In this document: piece by piece, positions 38,008 through 62,546 of the stretch
How positions within the stretch are numbered: position 1 is the first letter of the stretch
How the letters are laid out: every line of letters begins with the position of its first letter
The notes under the pieces: generated by a model
What the model was told of the DNA's origin: nothing
Databases searched by the model: none
What the model saw: only the letters and a program-made list of their open reading frames with translations
Source: an uncultured delta proteobacterium
Lineage (GTDB): Bacteria; Myxococcota_A; Polyangia; Polyangiales; Polyangiaceae
Reading direction: 5' to 3'
Length of the DNA: 64,000 nt
Assembly (NCBI GenBank): GCA_963850305.1
Contig: CAWKKR010000007.1
Span: forward strand, 416,001 to 480,000
Position numbers and translations under genes: made by a program

Positions 38008-39039
38008 GTGGGAAAGGCGCGAGCCGGAAGACCTCTGGGTCGGTTTACGCAGCACCGGCGGCTCGACAAGCTAAGGGACATCCTGGAGCGGCATCCCCGA
38101 GGGCTCGAACTCGAGGAACTGGCGAGTGCACTCTCGGTGACGACCCGGAGCATTCGCCGATATTTGAAGGAGATGGAGCGGGAATACGAGCTCGAAGCCG
38201 TACCGGTCCGCGGCGGGGGACCGTTGCTGTGGCGGATTCGCGCCGGCGAGATTCCGCGAAAAGTCGAGCTACGAAGGACGCAGGCGTACGCGCTGCTGGC
38301 CGCGAGGCGCGTCTTCAACCCGCTCCGCGGGTCCGCCCTGTTCGAGGAGATCGATCTCGCGGTGAACAAGCTGCTCGCCGTCGCGCAGCGACCCGGGCGG
38401 GGTCCGAACGCCGGCATAGCGGACGCACGCCTCGAGGAGCGGTTCCTCTATTTGCCGTTCGCGCCGAAGAACTACGCCGAAAAAACCGACGAGCTGGACG
38501 ATCTGTTCCAGTCCGTTTCCGATCTTCGTCCACTCACGTTGCTCTACAGGAGCGCCGGCAAGGAGCGCGAAGAACGGATCACGATTCACCCATATGCGAT
38601 GGTCCTGCACCGGGATTCGATCTACTGCGTCGGTCATCACGTGGGGCGCGGCGAGGTCCGCACGTTTTTGCTCGATCGCATGCGCGACACGCAAGCCGCG
38701 GCCACGGAACGCTTCGAGCTGCCACCGGATTTCGTCATAGACGACTATTTCCAGGGCGAGTTCGGGATCTGGAAGAGCTCGGAGCGGCACCGGGTGGTCA
38801 TCGACTTCGACGCGCAGGTGGCGGAGTACGTCCGCATGCGCCGCGTGCATCCCACTCAGAAGCTCGCCGCGACGGCGGGCGGCATTCGCCTCACCATGTC
38901 CGTCGGCAGCCTGACGGAGCTCACGAGCTGGGTTCTCGAATGGGGTCAGCGTGCCCGCGTCATCGAACCGCCCGAGCTCGCGGAGCGCGTCAAGGCCGAG
39001 CTCGAGGGCGCGCTCAAGGGTTACGCGAAGAGGACGTGA
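38008..39039 (+). CDS. wHTH-WYL-WCX transcriptional regulator (YafY/PafB-like)
   Basis: ELASALSVTTRSIRRYL (HTH); RITIHPYAMV..IYCVG..RTFLLDRM (WYL); WVLEWGQRARVIEPPEL (WCX). Confidence 0.93.
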   Translation: MGKARAGRPLGRFTQHRRLDKLRDILERHPRGLELEELASALSVTTRSIRRYLKEMEREYELEAVPVRGGGPLLWRIRAGEIPRKVELRRTQAYALLAARRVFNPLRGSALFEEIDLAVNKLLAVAQRPGRGPNAGIADARLEERFLYLPFAPKNYAEKTDELDDLFQSVSDLRPLTLLYRSAGKEREERITIHPYAMVLHRDSIYCVGHHVGRGEVRTFLLDRMRDTQAAATERFELPPDFVIDDYFQGEFGIWKSSERHRVVIDFDAQVAEYVRMRRVHPTQKLAATAGGIRLTMSVGSLTELTSWVLEWGQRARVIEPPELAERVKAELEGALKGYAKRT

Positions 39040-39640
39040 GCGAAGCGTCGCGATAGTACTTGTAGTACTCGAGCACCTTCACCACGTATTGGCGCGTCTC
39101 TTCGTAGGGCGGGATGCCGCCGTATTGCATGACGGCGTTCTCTCCTGCGTTGTAGCCCGCGAGGGTCAGCTGGATGTCACCGTTGAAGAGATTCGCCAGC
39201 ACGCGCAGGTAGCGTACGCCGCCAAAGATATTCTGCCGTGGATCGAACACGTCGCTCACGAGCATCCGCTCCGCCGTCTCCGGCATGAGCTGCATCAGGC
39301 CACGCGCGTTCGTCCGCGAGACCGCGCGGGGGTCGAAGCCGCTCTCGACCCGGATCACCGCGCGGACCAGCTGCTCCGGGATCTGGTAAAGCGCCGCAGC
39401 CTGGTGGATGACATCGTCGTAACGCGAGGCGCCGCCGAACGCGAAGTCTCCCGAGCTCGGCTTCGGGGGATCCGGCACCCGAGCGTACAGCTTCCCCTTC
39501 TTGTGCGTGTTCGTGAAGCTGATGACCCCGTTCGGGCTCACGGTCTCGTAAATGTCCGCGCGACTCGCCGCCGGCGCGAGCACGAGCGCGGCGCCGCAAA
39601 GCAGAGAAGCCCGAACTCGCGAAGACAGGAATCGACCCAT
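39014..39640 (-). CDS. Lytic transglycosylase (SLT domain) with DUF4124-like N-terminus
   Basis: Signal peptide; ADIY...GVISFTN; AVIRVESGFDPRAVS..ARGLMQLMP; LAGYNAG; ETRQYV. Confidence 0.93.
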   Translation of the reverse strand: MGRFLSSRVRASLLCGAALVLAPAASRADIYETVSPNGVISFTNTHKKGKLYARVPDPPKPSSGDFAFGGASRYDDVIHQAAALYQIPEQLVRAVIRVESGFDPRAVSRTNARGLMQLMPETAERMLVSDVFDPRQNIFGGVRYLRVLANLFNGDIQLTLAGYNAGENAVMQYGGIPPYEETRQYVVKVLEYYKYYRDASLTSSSRNP

Positions 39641-39756: not shown

Positions 39757-39883
39757 GGCGGAGGGGGTGAAGGCGAAGACGGCATGGTCAGCTAGGCGGG
39801 TGAGGCGCGGAAGCGTGCGCATGCACGCTGAGCACCGAGAGCGCCTAGAGGGCCGTGCCCTCGAAGCCAGCACCCCCTCCGCC
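39757..39883 (+). repeat. Structured intergenic repeat, copy A (127 nt)
   Basis: 13-bp terminal inverted repeat GGCGGAGGGGGTG/CACCCCCTCCGCC; 24-nt core 39796-39819 identical to 57745-57768 and 57871-57894. Confidence 0.85.
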
Positions 39884-39888
39884 GCAGT

Positions 39889-41863
39889 TCAGTCGTCGGC
39901 GGTCAGATACGTATAGCTACCGAGCGCTTGCTCGTAATGCCGGAGGAGAAGACGCATCTGTTCCAGCGTGATCTTGCCGCCGCCGAGGGCGGCTTCGGCC
40001 TGTTCGCGCACCGATTCCATCATGCCCTCGGGCGTGTGCGCGACCGAGCGCAGCACCTCGGACATGCTGTCTCCGCGAATGACGTGGGTCACCTTGTAGC
40101 CGCCGTCGCTCAGCCGGACGTGGACGGCGTTGGTGTCGCCGAAGAGATTATGAAGGTCGCCTAGGATCTCCTGATACGCGCCGTTCAGGAACATCGCGAG
40201 GAAATAGGAGTCGCCCTGGCTATAGGCGTGCACGTCGAGCGTGCTCTTCGTATCCTCGACGTCGATGAAGTGATCGATGACCCCGTCGCTGTCGCACGTC
40301 AGATCTGCGAGCGTCGCGCGCACGGTCGGCTCTTCGCCGAGCCGCTGGATCGGCATGATGGGGAAGAGCTGATCGATCGCCCATGAGTCCGGCGCGGACT
40401 GGAACACCGAGAAGTTGCAGTAGTAGATGGTGCCCATCGCGCGCTCGATGTCCTGGAGTTCTTCCGGGACGAACCTGAACCGGCGCACCGTGTCGCGGAT
40501 CTTCTCGCAGCAGTTCCAGTACAGGCGCTCCGCCTGAGCACGCTCGCGCAGCGTCAAGTATCCATACTTGAACAGGTTCTGCGCCTCTTCCTTCATCTGA
40601 CTCGCGTCGTGCCACGACTCCTGCACGTTCTTTGGGCGGATCCCCCGATACGTGTCGAACAGCTCGCGGAGCACGCGGTGCGCGTCCGACTTCGGCTCCA
40701 GCGGCTGACCGAAGTGGATCTCGTTGGCGCCGACCACGTCGAAGATGAGCACGGATTGATGCGCCACGACGGCGCGGCCGCTCTCGCTCACGATGGTCGG
40801 ATTCGGGACGTCGCGCTTGCCGCACGCACTCTGGATCGTCGAGACCACGTCCGCGGCGTACTCATGGAGCGTGTAGTTCCGCGACGCGTGGAAGTCCGTC
40901 TTCGAACCGTCGTAGTCGATGGCGAGTCCGCCGCCGACGTCGAGGTATCCCATCGCGCAGCCCATCTTGGCGAGCTCGACGTAGATGTTCGCGGCTTCCT
41001 GGATCGCGTTCTTGACCGGAATGATGCTCGAGAATCTGGCTCCCGATGTGAAAGTGAAGCAGCTTGAGGCAGTCGAGCATGTTCTTTTCGGACAGCCGAT
41101 CGACGAGCTCCACGATCTGCGCCGTCGTCAGTCCGAACTTCGCGCGATCCCCGGCGGACTCCTTCCACCTTCCCATGCCCTTGCTCGCGAGTTTCGCGCG
41201 GACACCCAGGATGGGCCGAATGCCGAGGCGCTCGCTCGCCTTCAACACGAGGTCGAACTCCTCGATGCGTTCGAGGACGACGATGACGGTGCGATCGAAG
41301 CGCTGCGCGATGAGCGCGGTCTCGATGTACGTCAGGTCCTTGTAGCCGTTGCAGATGACCAGCCCGGACGAGTCGCGCATGAACGCGAGTGCGATGAGGA
41401 GCTCCGGCTTCGATCCGACTTCGAGCCCGAAGCTCCAGGGCTTCCCGAACTCCACCACCTCTTCCACGATGTGGCGCTGCTGGTTGACTTTGACCGGATA
41501 GACGCCGCGGTAAACGCCCTGATACTCGTACTCCTCGATCGCCTGCACGAAGGCTTCGTTGATCGAGCGAATGCGGTGCTGGAGGATCTCCGAGAAGCGC
41601 ACCAGGATCGGGAGCTCGATGCCGCGTGCCTGTAGATCGTGCGCGAGATCGTAGAGGTCGATCGCGCGCTCGCAATCCGGATCGGGCGTGACTTCGACGT
41701 GGCCCTTCTCGTTGATCGAGAAGTAGGGCGCTCCCCATCCTCGAATCTGATAGAGGTCAGCGCTTTGTCCGACGTCCCACTCCTGCGCGCCGTTCGGCTT
41801 GAGACGCCGAACGTTCGGACGGGTGGGAGGCGTCGGACGAACCTGCGGGGTCGGTCCTGCCAT
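39889..41863 (-). CDS. speA: Biosynthetic arginine decarboxylase; 1-nt insertion at 41033-41034
   Basis: WGAPYF, YPVKVNQ (PLP Lys), GLEVGSKPEL, HFHIGSQI, then in the next frame SSIIPVKNAIQEA..LDVGGGL, ESGRA, DLTCDSDG, GAYQEILGDLHNLFG. Confidence 0.95.
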
Positions 41864-56251: not shown

Positions 56252-57319
56252 ATGAGCTCGCTCGAGCTCAGTGGCGGCGCCGTGACGGTCTCCGATCCGG
56301 ACAAGTGGGGTGCCTCTTCCCCTGCACTCCTTCGGGTCGTCGCTGTCGTCTCCTGGGCTGCGCTCTTCGTGCGTCTCGTCGCGGCCGCGTTGCCTGGTTC
56401 GCGTTCGGGGATCGCGACGTGGATCGTCCGCTCGGATCTGGCGTCGAGCCTCCTGACCCAGAGCGCCGCGTTGCTCGGCTCGGCGTTGCTCGTGCTCCTC
56501 GCCATCGGAACGCTCGCGGAACGCGGGCTCCCTTACATGTATCGCATCGCTCTCATTCCGACCTCGGTCGTCGTCGTGATGCTCGTGATGCTCGCGGCCA
56601 CGACGGGGCTCGAGCCCGCCGGGAGCCTCGCGCTCGGCTCCGCGTGCCTCTTGCTTTCGGCTTCAGGGGCAGGGGCCGCCCTGCGCGTCCCATCGACACG
56701 CGCAACAGGGATGGTACTCACGCTCGTCATTCTCGGAGCGACGGGCCAGCTCGCGGTCCGGTTCCTCTCGATGGACGCGTCGCATCGGGACCCCGCATGG
56801 ATCACCCGCGCTTCGTGGCTCGCGACGACGGGACACGCCTTCGACGCGTTCGGCATCGCGCTCGCGGCGGCCCGACTCAGGGCCGAGCAGCGCGGGCGCG
56901 CGGCGCTGGCCCTCGTGGTCGTGATTGCGCTCGCGATCCTGCTCTCGTGGGGTGCGATGCGCGGTTCGCTCGACGGCGCGCCCCTCTGGCAAGTACTCGC
57001 GGACCGCGCGATGAGCGAGCTCACGACGTCGCCGATCGCGTTCAGCACGCTTGCGAGCCGCACGTCGGTCGATGTTCTCGCGGTCCTTCTCGCGGGCGTG
57101 ATCGTGGCCTGGCCGGGGCGTATTTCGGTCGGCGCGATGTGTGCCGCGCTCGCCTTGACGGCGCGCGCGGGAGTCGACGTCCCCGAAGCGGCGCTCGTCC
57201 TGTCGCTCGGTGCTCTGGCCGCACCCCTCGGCGGCATGCCGATCTCGGAGAGCACTGCAAGCAGGCGCGCGACGCACGCAGCGGAGCCCGAACGGAGCGG
57301 CTCGGCTGGAAGAGCATGA
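56252..57319 (+). CDS. Hypothetical polytopic membrane protein
   Basis: About ten hydrophobic segments; ATGA overlap with the next gene. Confidence 0.7.
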   Translation: MSSLELSGGAVTVSDPDKWGASSPALLRVVAVVSWAALFVRLVAAALPGSRSGIATWIVRSDLASSLLTQSAALLGSALLVLLAIGTLAERGLPYMYRIALIPTSVVVVMLVMLAATTGLEPAGSLALGSACLLLSASGAGAALRVPSTRATGMVLTLVILGATGQLAVRFLSMDASHRDPAWITRASWLATTGHAFDAFGIALAAARLRAEQRGRAALALVVVIALAILLSWGAMRGSLDGAPLWQVLADRAMSELTTSPIAFSTLASRTSVDVLAVLLAGVIVAWPGRISVGAMCAALALTARAGVDVPEAALVLSLGALAAPLGGMPISESTASRRATHAAEPERSGSAGRA

Positions 57320-57675
57320 AGGCCAGGGCCATCTTGCGTCGCGCGCTCTTCCCCGCCGTGCTTCTTGCGCTCCTGCTCACGAGTGGTTGCCATCATCCGC
57401 AACCCGCTCCTGCCGAGCGCGGTCGTGACGTCTTCCTGGCCAACTGCGCCCGGTGTCACGGCCCCGACGCTCGAGGCACGCACCCTCCCGGCTTCACCGT
57501 CGCACCCCGCGACCTCACCGATCCGGCGCTCCAGGCGCGTCTCGACGACAAGGCGATTCGCGAAACCATCCGCTACGGCAAAGGCCAGATGCCCCCCTTC
57601 GGTGCCGCCCTATCCGACAACGAAGTGACCGACCTCACCGCCTACATCCGCACCCTCAGACGATCCGCGCCATAA
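57316..57675 (+). CDS. Monoheme class I cytochrome c lipoprotein
   Basis: Lipobox TSGC; CARCH heme motif; GQMPPFG distal Met. Confidence 0.92.
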   Translation: MKARAILRRALFPAVLLALLLTSGCHHPQPAPAERGRDVFLANCARCHGPDARGTHPPGFTVAPRDLTDPALQARLDDKAIRETIRYGKGQMPPFGAALSDNEVTDLTAYIRTLRRSAP

Positions 57676-57703: not shown

Positions 57704-57959
57704 GACGCGGAGGGTCCGATTGCGAAGACCGCGCGGGTAGCCGTGCGGGTGAGGCGCGGAAGCGTGCGAACGCCCGCTGAGGCCCGAGAGCGCCGAGATG
57801 TCCGCGGGGTGGACGGCAGGCGAAAATGGAGACGCGGAGGGTCGATTGCGAAGACCGCGTGGGTAGCTGTGCGGGTGAGGCGCGGAAGCGTGCGAACGCA
57901 CGGCGAGCACCGAGAGCGCGCAGATGCCCGCGCGCTCGAAGCAAGCGACCCTCGGCGTC
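57704..57959 (+). repeat. Structured intergenic repeat, tandem copies B (57704-57830) and C (57831-57959)
   Basis: Both start GACGCGGAGGGTC and share the 24-nt core GCGGGTGAGGCGCGGAAGCGTGCG with copy A; copy C ends pair (GACGCGGAGGGTCGATTGC / GCAAGCGACCCTCGGCGTC). Confidence 0.88.
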
Positions 57960-60900
57960 AGTTGCAGGCGCCGGCGGTGCACGTCTTCGGACTCGCGCAC
58001 GCCAGATCGCTGCTGTTGTTGTAGCTGTGATTCCAGCTCTCCGCGGTCACGAGCTGCGCCTTCAGCTGATCCGACTGACACACGAGCAGATCGGTGTTGC
58101 TCGCGATGGTCAGGTTGCCGGCGACGTTCGTCAGAGTTCCCGTCGGCTTGATCAGACCCGTGATCGATGTGAGCACCCCGTTCCCATAGATCTGAAGGTA
58201 ATCGTTCGTCGTCGTGCCCACGCTCGAGAGCTTCGTGAGCCCGCCGAGGCTCGTCAGCGCGCCGTCGTACTGAATGTTGAAGTAACCCCCGACCGTCGTC
58301 AGCGCCGAGAGGCCGCCCACGTTGGTGAGCGAATTGTTGTTGTAGATCTGGAAATAGCCGCCGACCGTCTTGAGCGCCGTCAGTGCGTTCACATTCGTGA
58401 TGGCGTCCGACTGGAGGTTGAAATAGCCGCCGACCGTCGTGAGTGCCCCGAGGCCGTTGAGGCTCGTGAGCGAGCTGTCGTTGGTGATGCTGAGCTCCGC
58501 GTCGACGCTCTGCAGGTTCGCCAGCCCGTTCAAATTGGGGATGGCCGTGCTGTCGATGTGGAGCGACCCGGCGACCTCCGTGACGTTCTTCATCCAGGCG
58601 ATGTCCGCGGCCGTCGCGATCGAGACGTTACCGGTGAACACGCCGCTCTGGCCGGCGGTGCCGCCGGCACCCGCCGTGCAGGCCGCAGCCGTACACGTCG
58701 TGCAGCCGGAGTTCGCACCGCTCTCGTTGTTGTCCGACTGGACGGCGAGCTTGGTGGCGAGGGCGTTGACCTCGCACGCGGAGAGCAACGGGTTGCCCGC
58801 AATGTCCAGGATGTTGCCGAGCGCGCCGCTCTTCAATGTTCCGGACCTCAACCCGGTGATGTCGGCCAGGACGGCGTTCGACGTCACCATCAGGTTCAGC
58901 CCGATCGCCGTGAGCTTGTCGATGCCGTCGAACTGGGCGAGCGCGGGGTTGTCGTAGATATTGAGCGAGCCGCCGATCTGTCCGAGGGTCCCGAAGCCCG
59001 CGATGCTCTGGAGACCGCTGTCCGCGTAGATGTTCAGGTTGCCGATGATGTCGGTGAGGCCTCCGAAGCCCGCGATCGTATGCACGCCGTCGCTGTAGAT
59101 GTCGACGTCGGCATTGGCTGTCGCATAGGCCGTGAACCCGCCGATGCTCGTCAGCGCGGGATCGTTGTAGATGAGCAACGCGCCGCCGGTCGTGGTGAGC
59201 GCCGCGAACCCGTCGCTCGCGTCGAGCGCCGAGAGCTTGGCGTCGTCGTGGAGCTCCAGGGTGCCGCCGATGGTAGCGAGCTGCCCGAAGCCGCCAATCG
59301 TCGCGAGCACCCCGTTGCTGTAGATCTTCACGCTTCCGGACACGTTCGTGAGCGCTCCGAAGCCGCTGATCGACGTGAGCGCTCCGTCGTTGTCGATATG
59401 AATGTCGCCCTCGACGTCGCTGAGGGTGCTGAAGCCGCTGATGGTCGTGAGCGCGCTGTTGCCTTCGATGTAGATGTACTGCGCGACCGACGTGAGCGCG
59501 TTCAGCGCAGAAGAGAAGCTCGCGAGGGACGAGTTCTGGGAGATGTTGACGTACTGGCCCACCGTCTGCAGCGCGGACAGCCCGCCGATGTTCTGAACGC
59601 CGTTCGAGTAAATCTGCAGGTAGCCGCCGATGGAGTTGAGCGCCGTCATCCCGAGGCTGGTCAGCGCGCCGTTATACTGGACGTTCAGGTATCCACCGAC
59701 GGACGTAAGGTTCGTCAGCGCATTGACGTTCGTGAGGGCGCCATTGTTGTAGAGCTGGAAGTAGCCGCCGACGGTCTGCAGGGCGCCGAGACCGGTGAGG
59801 CTCGTGAGAGCGCTGTCGCTCTGGATGTTCAGGTTGCCGTCGATCGTCGTCAGTGCTCCGAGGCCGTTCAACGTCGTGATCGAGCCGTCGTTCGAGATGT
59901 CGACGTTGCCGGTCACGTGCGTCAGCGCTCCGAGGCCGGTGAGGACCGAGAGCGAAGTGCTGTCGATCGTCAGGTTGCCGTCGATTTCCGTCACGGTGGC
60001 CAGGGTTGCGAGATCGCTCGTCGTCGAGACGGTGACGTTCCCGGTATAGACGCCGTTCTGACCGGCGGTGCCACCCGGAGTGCCCGAGCACGTCGCTCCG
60101 GTGCACGCGGTGCACCCCTGGTTGCAGCAACTCTGGTCCGTCCCCGCCCATGAGCCCGTTGCCTCCAGCTCGTCCAGGAGCGCACTGACTTCGCAGCTCG
60201 GCAACGCGGGGTTGTTGGAGATCGCGAAGTTGTTGCCGACCGTCTGCATCTGGGCGGACAGAAGCCCGTTGATGCTCGAGAGCGCCTGGTTGTCCTGGAT
60301 GTCGAGATCGGTGCCGACATTCTTCAACTTCGAGATGCTGTCGAAGTTAGTCAGCTTCGGATTCCGGATGATCGCGAGATACGCGCCGATGTCCGTGAGA
60401 TTACCGAACGCGGTGCCGTTGAACGACGTCAACAGGGGGTTGTTCTGGATCTCGAGGTGGCCGATGATCTTTTGCAGGTTCCCGAAGCCGGAGAGCGTCG
60501 CGAGCGCCGCATTGTCGTGGATCTCGATGTGGCGGTTCGCAGTGGTAAATCCGCCGAATCCGGTGATGCTCGAGAGCGCGCCGTTGTTGTAAAGAGTGAC
60601 GTCGCTGCCGACGAACTGCACGGCCCCGAATCCCGCCAGGGTCGTCATCGCCGCGTTGTCGTGGATGGTCACCGAACCAGTCACGTTCGCGAGCGCGCCA
60701 AACCCGGTGACGTTGCCGAGCGCGGCCTCCGTGTCGATGTCGATCCCGCCCACGTCCGTGACGTGCGTGAAACCGGCCAGGGTCGTCTGCTTGGCATCGT
60801 TGTTGAAGGTGATCGTGCCGCCGACCGTCTGCAGCTTGGTGAACCCATCGCACGCGGTCATGACCGAGTTACCCGTGACGGAGACATACCCGCTCACGTT

Positions 60901-62546
60901 CGCCAGATTCGCGAAGCCGATGATGTTGGTGAGGGCGCCGTTCTGGGCGATATTGACGTATCCGCTCACGGTCGTGAGCGCGGGGAAGCCCTTCAGGGTG
61001 AGGATCCCGTTCGAGTACACCTGCAGGTACCCGCCCACCTGTACGAGGGCAGGGAACGCGCTGTCCATACTCAGCAGGTTCCCGTTGTACTGGACGTTCA
61101 GGTAGTCCGTGACCTCGACGAGGTTCGTGAACCCGGTCACGTTGTTCAGGGTGCCGTTGTTGTAGATGTTCAGGTTGCCAGTCGTCTTCAGTGTCGCGAG
61201 TCCCGTCAGATCGTTCAGAACGCCATCGCTCTGGATCTGGAGGCCGCCCATGACCGTCGTGAGCCCCGTCAGGCCCTTCAGCGACGTCATGCTGCCGTTG
61301 TTGTTGATGTTCACGCTGCCCCCGACCCACTGCAGCGATTCCATCCCGGTGAGGTTCACGAGAGCCGTGCTGTTGATGTTGACGTTCCCCTGAACGCAGG
61401 TGGTGTGTGCGGTCTGGAAATTCGCGATGTCGGTCGTCGTGCTGATGTTCAGATCGCCCGGGGTGATCGTGCCCAGACAACCTTCCGGCTGAATCTCGGT
61501 GCCGCACACGCCTGCGATGCACGTCGCGGGGCCGGACGTCGTGTCGCACGCAGTCTCGTTGCCGCAGGTCGTCCCGCACGAGGTCGGAACGTTGAGGGTC
61601 GTCTCGCAGCCGTCATCGGGGTCGGGCGTGCTGCAGTTTCGCGTTCCGGCCGCGCAGGGTACGCAGGTTCCTACGATGCATGTCTGCGCTTCTCCGCCCG
61701 GGCACGGAACCGTTGCTCCCCACGATTTACCGTCGTCCGCGCAGGTCTGGTAGCCGTTGCCGGAGCATTGCGTCGCGCTGGGTTGGCAAATCTGCCCGCC
61801 GGTTCCCGCTCCGCCGGTTCCCGCTCCGCCGGTTCCCGCTCCGCCGGTTCCGCTCCGCCGGTTCCCGCTCCGCCGGTTCCCGCTCCGCCGGTTCCCGCTC
61901 CGCCGGTTCCCGCTCCGCCGGTTCCCGCTCCGCCGGTTCCCGCTCCGCCGCCGCTCTCGGCGCCGCCTGTGCCGGGGGTGCCGCCGCTCTCGACCCCTTC
62001 GCCGCCCGCGCCGGAATCGACGGCCGAGCCGCCCGCGCCGATGCCACCGCCCGCGCCGATGCCGCCGCCCGCGCCGGTACCGCCGCCCGCTCCCGCGTCG
62101 AGGACCGTGACTGCTCCGATTAGCTTGCCGTTCGCGACTTCACTCGGATTGGCGCAGACCGTTTGAACGCAAACCTCGCCGGAGATGCAGTCGCGCTGCG
62201 TCGCGCACTGATTGTGACACCGTTGGTCGATCGCGCAGATGAGAGGGGCGATGCATTGCGAGTTGAGTGTGCACGTCGCTTCCGACTCGAGCTGGCAGAC
62301 GCTCGACTTCGGGCCGCCGTCGACACCGCCGACCGTCACGCAGCGCTGATTCGCGGGACAATCCTTCGCGTTCGCGCACTCGATGTGACAGAGCCCGAAG
62401 CTGCAGATGAGCCCGCCGGAGCAGTCGCTGTTCAGCGTGCACTGCGTCGCCGCCGGGGAGTGCGAGCTGCTCGAGCCGCAGCCCGCCGCGACGACGAACG
62501 CGAGTCCCATACTCCCGAGCGCCAGCCAGCGACGAACCTTGCCCAT
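57958..62546 (-). CDS. Large Cys-rich surface lipoprotein with receptor-L-domain (LRR-like) repeats, ~1530 aa; 1-nt deletion at ~61850
   Basis: Lipobox AAGC, Cys-rich modules and (GGAGT)n in the 61671..62639 frame; restoring one base joins GGQICQPSATQC.. and the 57958..61509 ORF with many LxxLTxVGGxLxIxxNxxLT repeats. Confidence 0.85.
61796..61944. repeat. 15-nt tandem repeat, 10 units
   Basis: (CCGCCGGTTCCCGCT)x10; unit 4 (61841-61854) lacks one C; encodes GGAGT on the - strand. Confidence 0.95.

Follow-up and report, generated by a model that had tools for sequence, protein, structure and literature searches.

A multicopy 127-nt rod-shaped repeat in Polyangiaceae, likely a distant relative of ERIC sequences

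The analyzed stretch (hereafter the window) comprises 64,000 nt of an uncultured member of Polyangiaceae and contains three copies of a rod-like element: copy A, located between two genes of the same strand, and copies B and C, arranged in tandem between convergent genes (Table 1). A 24-nt core is common to copies A, B, and C, and its 3 occurrences in the window compare with 0 expected from 100 shuffles. Copies A and C form unbranched rods with the + strand folding better, and the fold of copy A has z-scores of −9.5 as RNA and −5.7 as DNA, while copy B, with its decayed right arm, reaches −1.2. The arrangement of the copy A apex is common to rods of other lineages. Re-reading and folding recovered everything described in the sequence-only reading: each stem, both the GAA/GAA internal loop and the C-C mismatch, the core of 24 nt, and the hairpin at the apex. 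Its remark that the + strand is antisense to both flanking genes holds for copy A but not for copies B and C. As for the surroundings of copy A, speA seems to be split by a frameshift (window positions 41033-41088), where a congener protein aligns in two frames, owing to either a real mutation or an assembly error, and a WYL/WCX-domain gene (38164-39039) converges on the SLT gene.

Table 1. Copies of the rod in the window and adjacent genes (window positions)
Feature	Position	Strand	Remark
SLT-domain lytic transglycosylase gene	39014..39583	-	about 170 nt from the 5' side of copy A
Copy A, complete 127-nt rod	39757..39883	+	+ is the GA-rich, better-folding strand
GAA/GAA 3x3 loop of copy A, 5' half	39775..39777	+	partner 39863-39865
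Conserved apex of copy A (2-bp stem, 3x2 GA loop, 7-bp stem, variable tetraloop)	39806..39835	+	
Arginine decarboxylase (speA), 3' part	39889..40965	-	TGA 39889-39891, 5 nt from the 3' base of copy A
Cytochrome c gene	57316..57675	+	convergent neighbor 5' of copies B and C
Copy B, tandem unit 5' of copy C	57704..57830	+	left arm and apex region intact, right arm degenerate
Copy C, complete rod	57831..57959	+	last 2 nt fall within the stop of the gene on the other strand
1183-aa gene with Receptor L domain	57958..61509	-	its TGA, 57958-57960, extends into the base of copy C

The covariation that the sequence-only reading had predicted from two copies is present in a larger alignment. Among 39 distinct copies, both sides change in 32 of 43 pairs (not corrected for kinship), and 95.4% of cells pair, vs 75.6% in shuffles (none of 500 reaches the observed value) and 31-41% in slid controls. 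All stems turn over, including the terminal one, and sequence is kept only in the apex and the GA-rich loops; the loops constant among copies are GAA/GAA, C·C, a tandem GA step, a 5x5 loop, and the 3x2 GA loop beneath the apical stem. The outer stem has a fixed length and a free sequence within the window genus. Its arms pair with their own partners at 0.92-0.96 and with the arms of other copies at 0.49-0.77, and pairing falls to chance level after ~11 bp. The median rod length is 127 nt (n = 72), which is that of an ERIC-like stem-loop of ~127 bp. In another genus of the set, referred to here as g70, rods have their own end consensus, and fixed ends overlapping TAG or TGA are seen there and in several metagenome rods. 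In two loci (L078:1460-1675 and L086:1460-1680) the predicted pairing continues for 15-20 bp outside the rod and seems to enter the end of the gene.

The wobble pairs point to one of the two strands as the structured one. On the + (GA) strand of the 39 copies, G·T pairs outnumber A·C pairs 111 to 12, which is not expected from homogenization of the arms alone, so the fold under selection appears to be that of the GA-rich strand, in line with the earlier proposal of selection on a single-stranded structure. This strand is also the better folder in 38 of the 39 copies as RNA and in 37 as DNA. The predicted folds of 152 diverse rods show a weak G·T excess (405 vs 342). No Rfam match, which would have removed novelty, was obtained for the element (window and rods of 36 loci). 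A stand-alone non-coding RNA or ribozyme, also suggested earlier, receives no support: the scan of copy A, in which promoters were sought with a sigma-70 model only, returned no promoter- or terminator-like site and no U-tract terminator, the tetraloops are variable and not RNA-typical (GNRA in 3 and UNCG in 5 of 147), and no Rfam family applies. The element is accordingly judged not to be a catalytic RNA.

As for copy number, an iterated profile gives 37 matches in 27 loci of the source genome (94.8% complete), one of them deemed spurious, and a second profile gives 35 matches in 26 loci. A strict pattern is present in 5 of 6 congeners and in none of 54 other relatives, while covariance model R1, built from rods of the window genus only, has matches in 28 of the 150 family genomes searched, including the sixth congener. 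All 52 pattern matches in named genomes belong to Polyangiaceae, and within the phylum the apex is sparse (5 of 400 genomes by pattern and 4 of 150 by model). In genus g70 it occurs in 19 of 19 genomes, many of them single-contig, and two congeners there carry 63 and 17 copies, respectively. The apex pattern was also detected in at least 120 metagenome stretches with a DNA G+C content of 41-77%, nearly all of which fold as rods of similar length. Viral contigs yielded no matches with two patterns and 6 with a looser one, 3 of these folding as rods, and the pattern search of plasmids gave no real match.

Comparison of orthologous sites shows that rods are patchily distributed. The speA site of copy A is rod-free in all 5 informative congeners. 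At the rpmG-tRNA-Trp site, three species have a rod, whose fold is kept with turned-over stems, and one species has none. In genus g70, one site is filled in 2 of the 8 loci recovered, two sites are filled in genome G140 only, and one is filled in both genomes. Such filled and empty sites indicate that the rod behaves as a mobile repeat; together with the 26 loci and the tandem arrays they bear out the repeat or MITE-like branch of the sequence-only reading. Mobility is suggested here by patchy presence, a picture that loss could also produce. Rods also occur in tandem arrays, and truncated, tandem, or partial copies lie on 5' sides, while 3' junctions are clean. None of 37 rods is flanked by TA, and a 2-nt direct repeat flanks 4 of the 37. 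No readable target duplication was found at the empty sites, since the intergenic spacers are too diverged for insertion junctions to be read. Behind the same speA stop, four congener loci without copy A (L147, L148, L149, L150) have other, unrelated hairpins or short tandem repeats. The free 5' side of many genus g70 copies (L385, L387, L389, L392, L394, L396, L404, L410) shows C/T-rich tracts and repeated fragments of the rod 5' end.

The position of rods relative to genes is strongly polar, according to counts made with a codon-based gene caller written for this analysis, with orthologous sites counted. On the 3' side of the GA strand lies a gene of the opposite strand in 23 of 26 own loci and in 54 of 60 loci of relatives with a called neighbor (3 more are uncalled). 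Of 36 rods in co-directional gaps, 30 are antisense, and in convergent gaps the 3' gap is shorter than the 5' gap in 42 of 45 (medians of 8 and 145 nt, respectively, from profile ends). Of 72 copies, 57 have a stop codon no more than 60 nt away; in 35 it is at −5 to +8 nt from the rod base, and in 19 it overlaps the base. Metagenome rods share this polarity (41 of 53, vs 15 of 53 on the mirror side). Rod neighbors include translation and housekeeping genes. Contacts with tRNA genes number 15 among 268 loci, all 15 at the rod 3' base and 12 of them in the 5' leader; the leader rods, in sense orientation, precede tRNA-Trp, -Ile, -Thr, or -Gly, and several are orthologous. Rods immediately before tRNA-Ile were seen in L259, L305, L166, and L172, with L259 and L305 lying within the 16S-23S spacer.

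No replichore bias of rod orientation was seen, with 26 of 63 rods in a one-contig genome (p 0.21, origin set at dnaA; skew samples in G140 are noisy) and 15 of 26 in the source genome. Rods follow gene orientation and not replichores, and the fork-tied orientation of IS200/IS605-type elements was not observed. The intergenic, orientation-dependent placement at gene 3' ends resembles that of ERIC, for which the E. coli copies show the same lean in small numbers only (4 of 11 vs 1 of 11). A general rule by which the left arm would be copied from the target was considered as well; pairing of the arm reaches into the stop codon in 19 of the 57 copies that have one, and the constant stem length and the separate end consensus of genus g70 speak against such a rule.

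ERIC sequences have been known since 1990. Also called IRU or RU-1, they are described as 127-bp elements of Enterobacteriaceae and Vibrionaceae (PMC2229807, PMC2759123, PMC10969869), the last of these sources also giving these two families as their range. Rods share with them the length of 127 and the unbranched shape, a GA strand that folds better (in 16 of 16 ERICs), a small GA loop under a 6-7-bp apical stem with a variable tetraloop, and, in some ERIC copies, a 3x3 purine loop near the base. Both are intergenic near gene ends, and the transfer mechanism is elucidated for neither, as PMC2759123 states for ERIC. Rods differ in lacking the TA termini characteristic of ERIC, in the letters of the apex, in belonging to another phylum, and in occurring as tandem arrays and in tRNA leaders; no significant match links ERIC directly to the window copies. 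In the Rfam search of the window and of rods in 36 loci, only ERIC copies match CssrA and V_AS5 (L190:1479-1661, L191, L337, L338), and owing to this overlap both families may be ERIC-derived transcripts. V_AS5 appears to correspond to V. cholerae AS5, reported as a 133-nt antisense RNA detected on northern blots (PMC2665243).

Support for kinship comes from covariance models, whose E-values are rough. Copies of ERIC for these comparisons were drawn from viral contigs and E. coli K-12. Model R3, built from ERIC alone, was applied to 63 rod loci (81 kb) and has full-length, in-register matches to rods of L214 (42 bits, E 6e-9), L349 (33), L305 (31), L259 (26), and L212 (25), and another at 20 bits. 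Of its 35 matches, 30 lie on the rod GA strand with the apex centered within 2 nt, 1 lies on the opposite strand, and 4 are off rods. The best control score, from 95 kb of further myxobacterial DNA selected for hairpin repeats of other kinds, is 15.7 bits. Model R1 scores the rods of the same five loci at 42, 30, 32, 22, and 22 bits, respectively (E 1e-8 for L214), and an off-rod hairpin in L206 reached 21.6 bits, so only the top R1 links count. On ERIC itself R1 is weak (E 0.024-0.17 at 3 of 15 ERIC loci), models R1 and R2 missed ERIC in E. coli, and R3 has no match on the window copies or elsewhere in the source genome. Sequence-only HMMs comparing ERIC and rods are not significant (best E 0.15 and 0.7), and 7 of 152 rods retain a resemblance to ERIC arms at z > 3 when the apex is masked. 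The gene next to the L214 rod resembles, by a weak match, clusters commonest in Thermodesulfobacteriota. According to these models, rods are likely distant relatives of ERIC and not ERIC proper, the homology being transitive via intermediates.

Among other known systems, REP/REPIN elements with RAYT resemble rods as extragenic palindromes near stop codons that form tandem arrays and are recognized as single strands. Rods, however, are a single 127-nt structure and not a 20-40-nt unit or doublet, and no Y1 (HUH) transposase or RAYT was found in the 94.8% of the source genome that is represented, which leaves the REP/RAYT option of the sequence-only reading without support. Integron attC sites likewise lie at stop codons, fold better on the antisense strand, and keep structure as sequence varies. 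In alignment, rod ends lack the AAC/GTT core by which attC sites are defined, and the neighbors of rods are core genes and tRNAs rather than cassette arrays. Geobacter metallireducens Gmet_R1001-R1024, listed as "predicted short RNA elements," are ~113-nt intergenic multicopy sequences (PMC2700814, Additional file 4). Judged by eye only, they share the apex arrangement on the reverse complement, with a different apex loop and different arms, and their entries in PMC2700814 give no structure model, strand, polarity, or mobility. In 12 of 15 supplementary files for G. bemidjiensis no motif match was found, although spaced letters in PDFs may mask matches. The family, which the sequence-only reading did not recognize, is not entirely novel, given the bridge via intermediates to ERIC and the visual one to Geobacter.

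The search for a mobilizing enzyme covered the source genome, its congeners, and genes adjoining rods. No reverse transcriptase (RT) was found in the source genome at its 94.8% completeness, so an msDNA-like repeat was dropped; RT is present in 4 of 7 genomes of the window genus and missing from the rod-bearing G001 and G005. IS630-type DDE_3 is likewise present in 4 of these 7 genomes, with only a fragment in the source genome, which carries several DDE transposases. The resident IS110 (8 copies) and IS91-type (3 copies) elements were rejected as sources, their ends being different from the rod. Among 129 of the 184 ORFs adjoining metagenome and viral rods, no transposase, RT, or HUH nuclease was detected; the same set has one serine recombinase and many housekeeping genes. 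A further 373 rod neighbors, which were clustered only, contain no recurring mobile-looking family. The eight IS110 copies (L002-L009; contig:position C5:149490, C5:297725, C7:1030107, C11:72567, C8:718545 of genome G000, and three more) adjoin other GA-rich hairpin repeats, often long tandem arrays, of a family distinct from the rod. As for the three IS91-type transposase genes (C6:9222, C7:14866, and C2:15708; L060-L062), a ~105-nt piece of their downstream end occurs alone at ~15 other places of the source genome as candidate non-autonomous origins. What we take to be an IS91-type gene tail lies just 5' of a rod array (C11:376500-376960; L014).

Based on these results, with a probability of roughly 0.6 the rod is a non-autonomous multicopy repeat, distantly related to ERIC, that is copied as a folded GA-rich single strand and recognized by its shape by an unlinked enzyme. 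Such an enzyme would act on the folded strand through a DNA or an RNA intermediate, with the apex and the rod length possibly serving as recognition site and ruler. New copies would land, or survive, only where the 3' base of the GA strand meets the end of a transcribed unit, and local slippage would generate the partial and tandem copies at the free 5' side. On mRNA the complementary strand would form a 3'-UTR hairpin and may alter transcript stability, as reported for ERIC.

Part of the same evidence could be read as a SINE-like retro-element, in which RNase P would free GA-strand RNA from tRNA-leader master copies and reverse transcription in trans would be primed at the sense strand just behind the stop codon. 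We regard this as improbable: the 12 of 15 tRNA contacts with the rod 3' base at the tRNA 5' end, the clean 3' junctions opposite truncated, tandem, or partial 5' sides, the polarity set by genes and not by replichores, the V_AS5 matches on the GA strand of ERIC copies, and the discrete AS5 RNA all agree with it, but RT is missing from the source genome and from two rod-bearing congeners, tetraloops are not RNA-typical, and a clean 3' side is also expected because the gene constrains it. A broader version is similarly improbable; it places ERIC as a single branch within an ancient superfamily of bacterial, SINE-like 127-nt rods extending over multiple phyla. In this version, masters in tRNA or rRNA-operon leaders would yield a discrete GA-strand RNA, and a trans enzyme reading the apex would write copies behind stop codons with no need for a terminal repeat sequence.

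A cut-and-paste MITE moved through its ends by an IS5- or IS630-like DDE transposase, with orientation and strand bias due solely to selection on transcripts, would fit the fixed ends overlapping TAG or TGA in some subfamilies (genus g70 and several metagenome rods), the several DDE transposases of the source genome, and the classification of ERIC as a MITE in reviews (PMC2229807, PMC3184786, PMC10969869). It is nevertheless quite improbable, given that terminal inverted repeats of conserved sequence, as in DDE-type MITEs, are not seen: the outer stem pairs but varies freely in the window genus, which conserves the center, the reverse of what is typical for an element with such repeats. Moreover, none of the 37 rods has TA flanks, no duplication was readable at empty sites, the selected fold is on the strand antisense to the abutting gene, and DDE_3 has the limited distribution given above. 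Least probable, and very unlikely in our estimate, is a domesticated cis-acting RNA element (terminator, nuclease site, or protein site) that the host retains at gene 3' ends and in pre-tRNA leaders and that spreads by gene conversion and not by transposition. Orthologous tRNA-Trp copies that keep the fold in three species despite stem turnover, the translation and housekeeping genes among neighbors, and the orientation-dependent effect of ERIC on mRNA stability (PMC2229807) speak for it, against which stand the patchy presence at orthologous sites, the lack of a U-tract terminator at copy A, and the fact that the conserved fold is absent from the mRNA of the abutting gene.

Repeats of the ERIC class as such are already known (PMC2229807, PMC3184786, PMC10969869, PMC2759123). 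New are the rod family of myxobacteria, its connection to ERIC through covariance models, the copies in tRNA leaders, and the absence of replichore bias; the literature covered, to which most subscription journals do not belong, describes neither the myxobacterial rod family nor any connection to ERIC beyond Gammaproteobacteria. Genus g70, with copies in all 19 genomes, many in single contigs, offers a means of testing candidate genes and insertion junctions. If rods are indeed relatives of ERIC, the family spans phyla, and the comparison would show that the apex, the GA loops, the length, and the use of one strand are kept and the ends are not, which would argue against the usual terminal-repeat picture and may guide the search for the enzyme.
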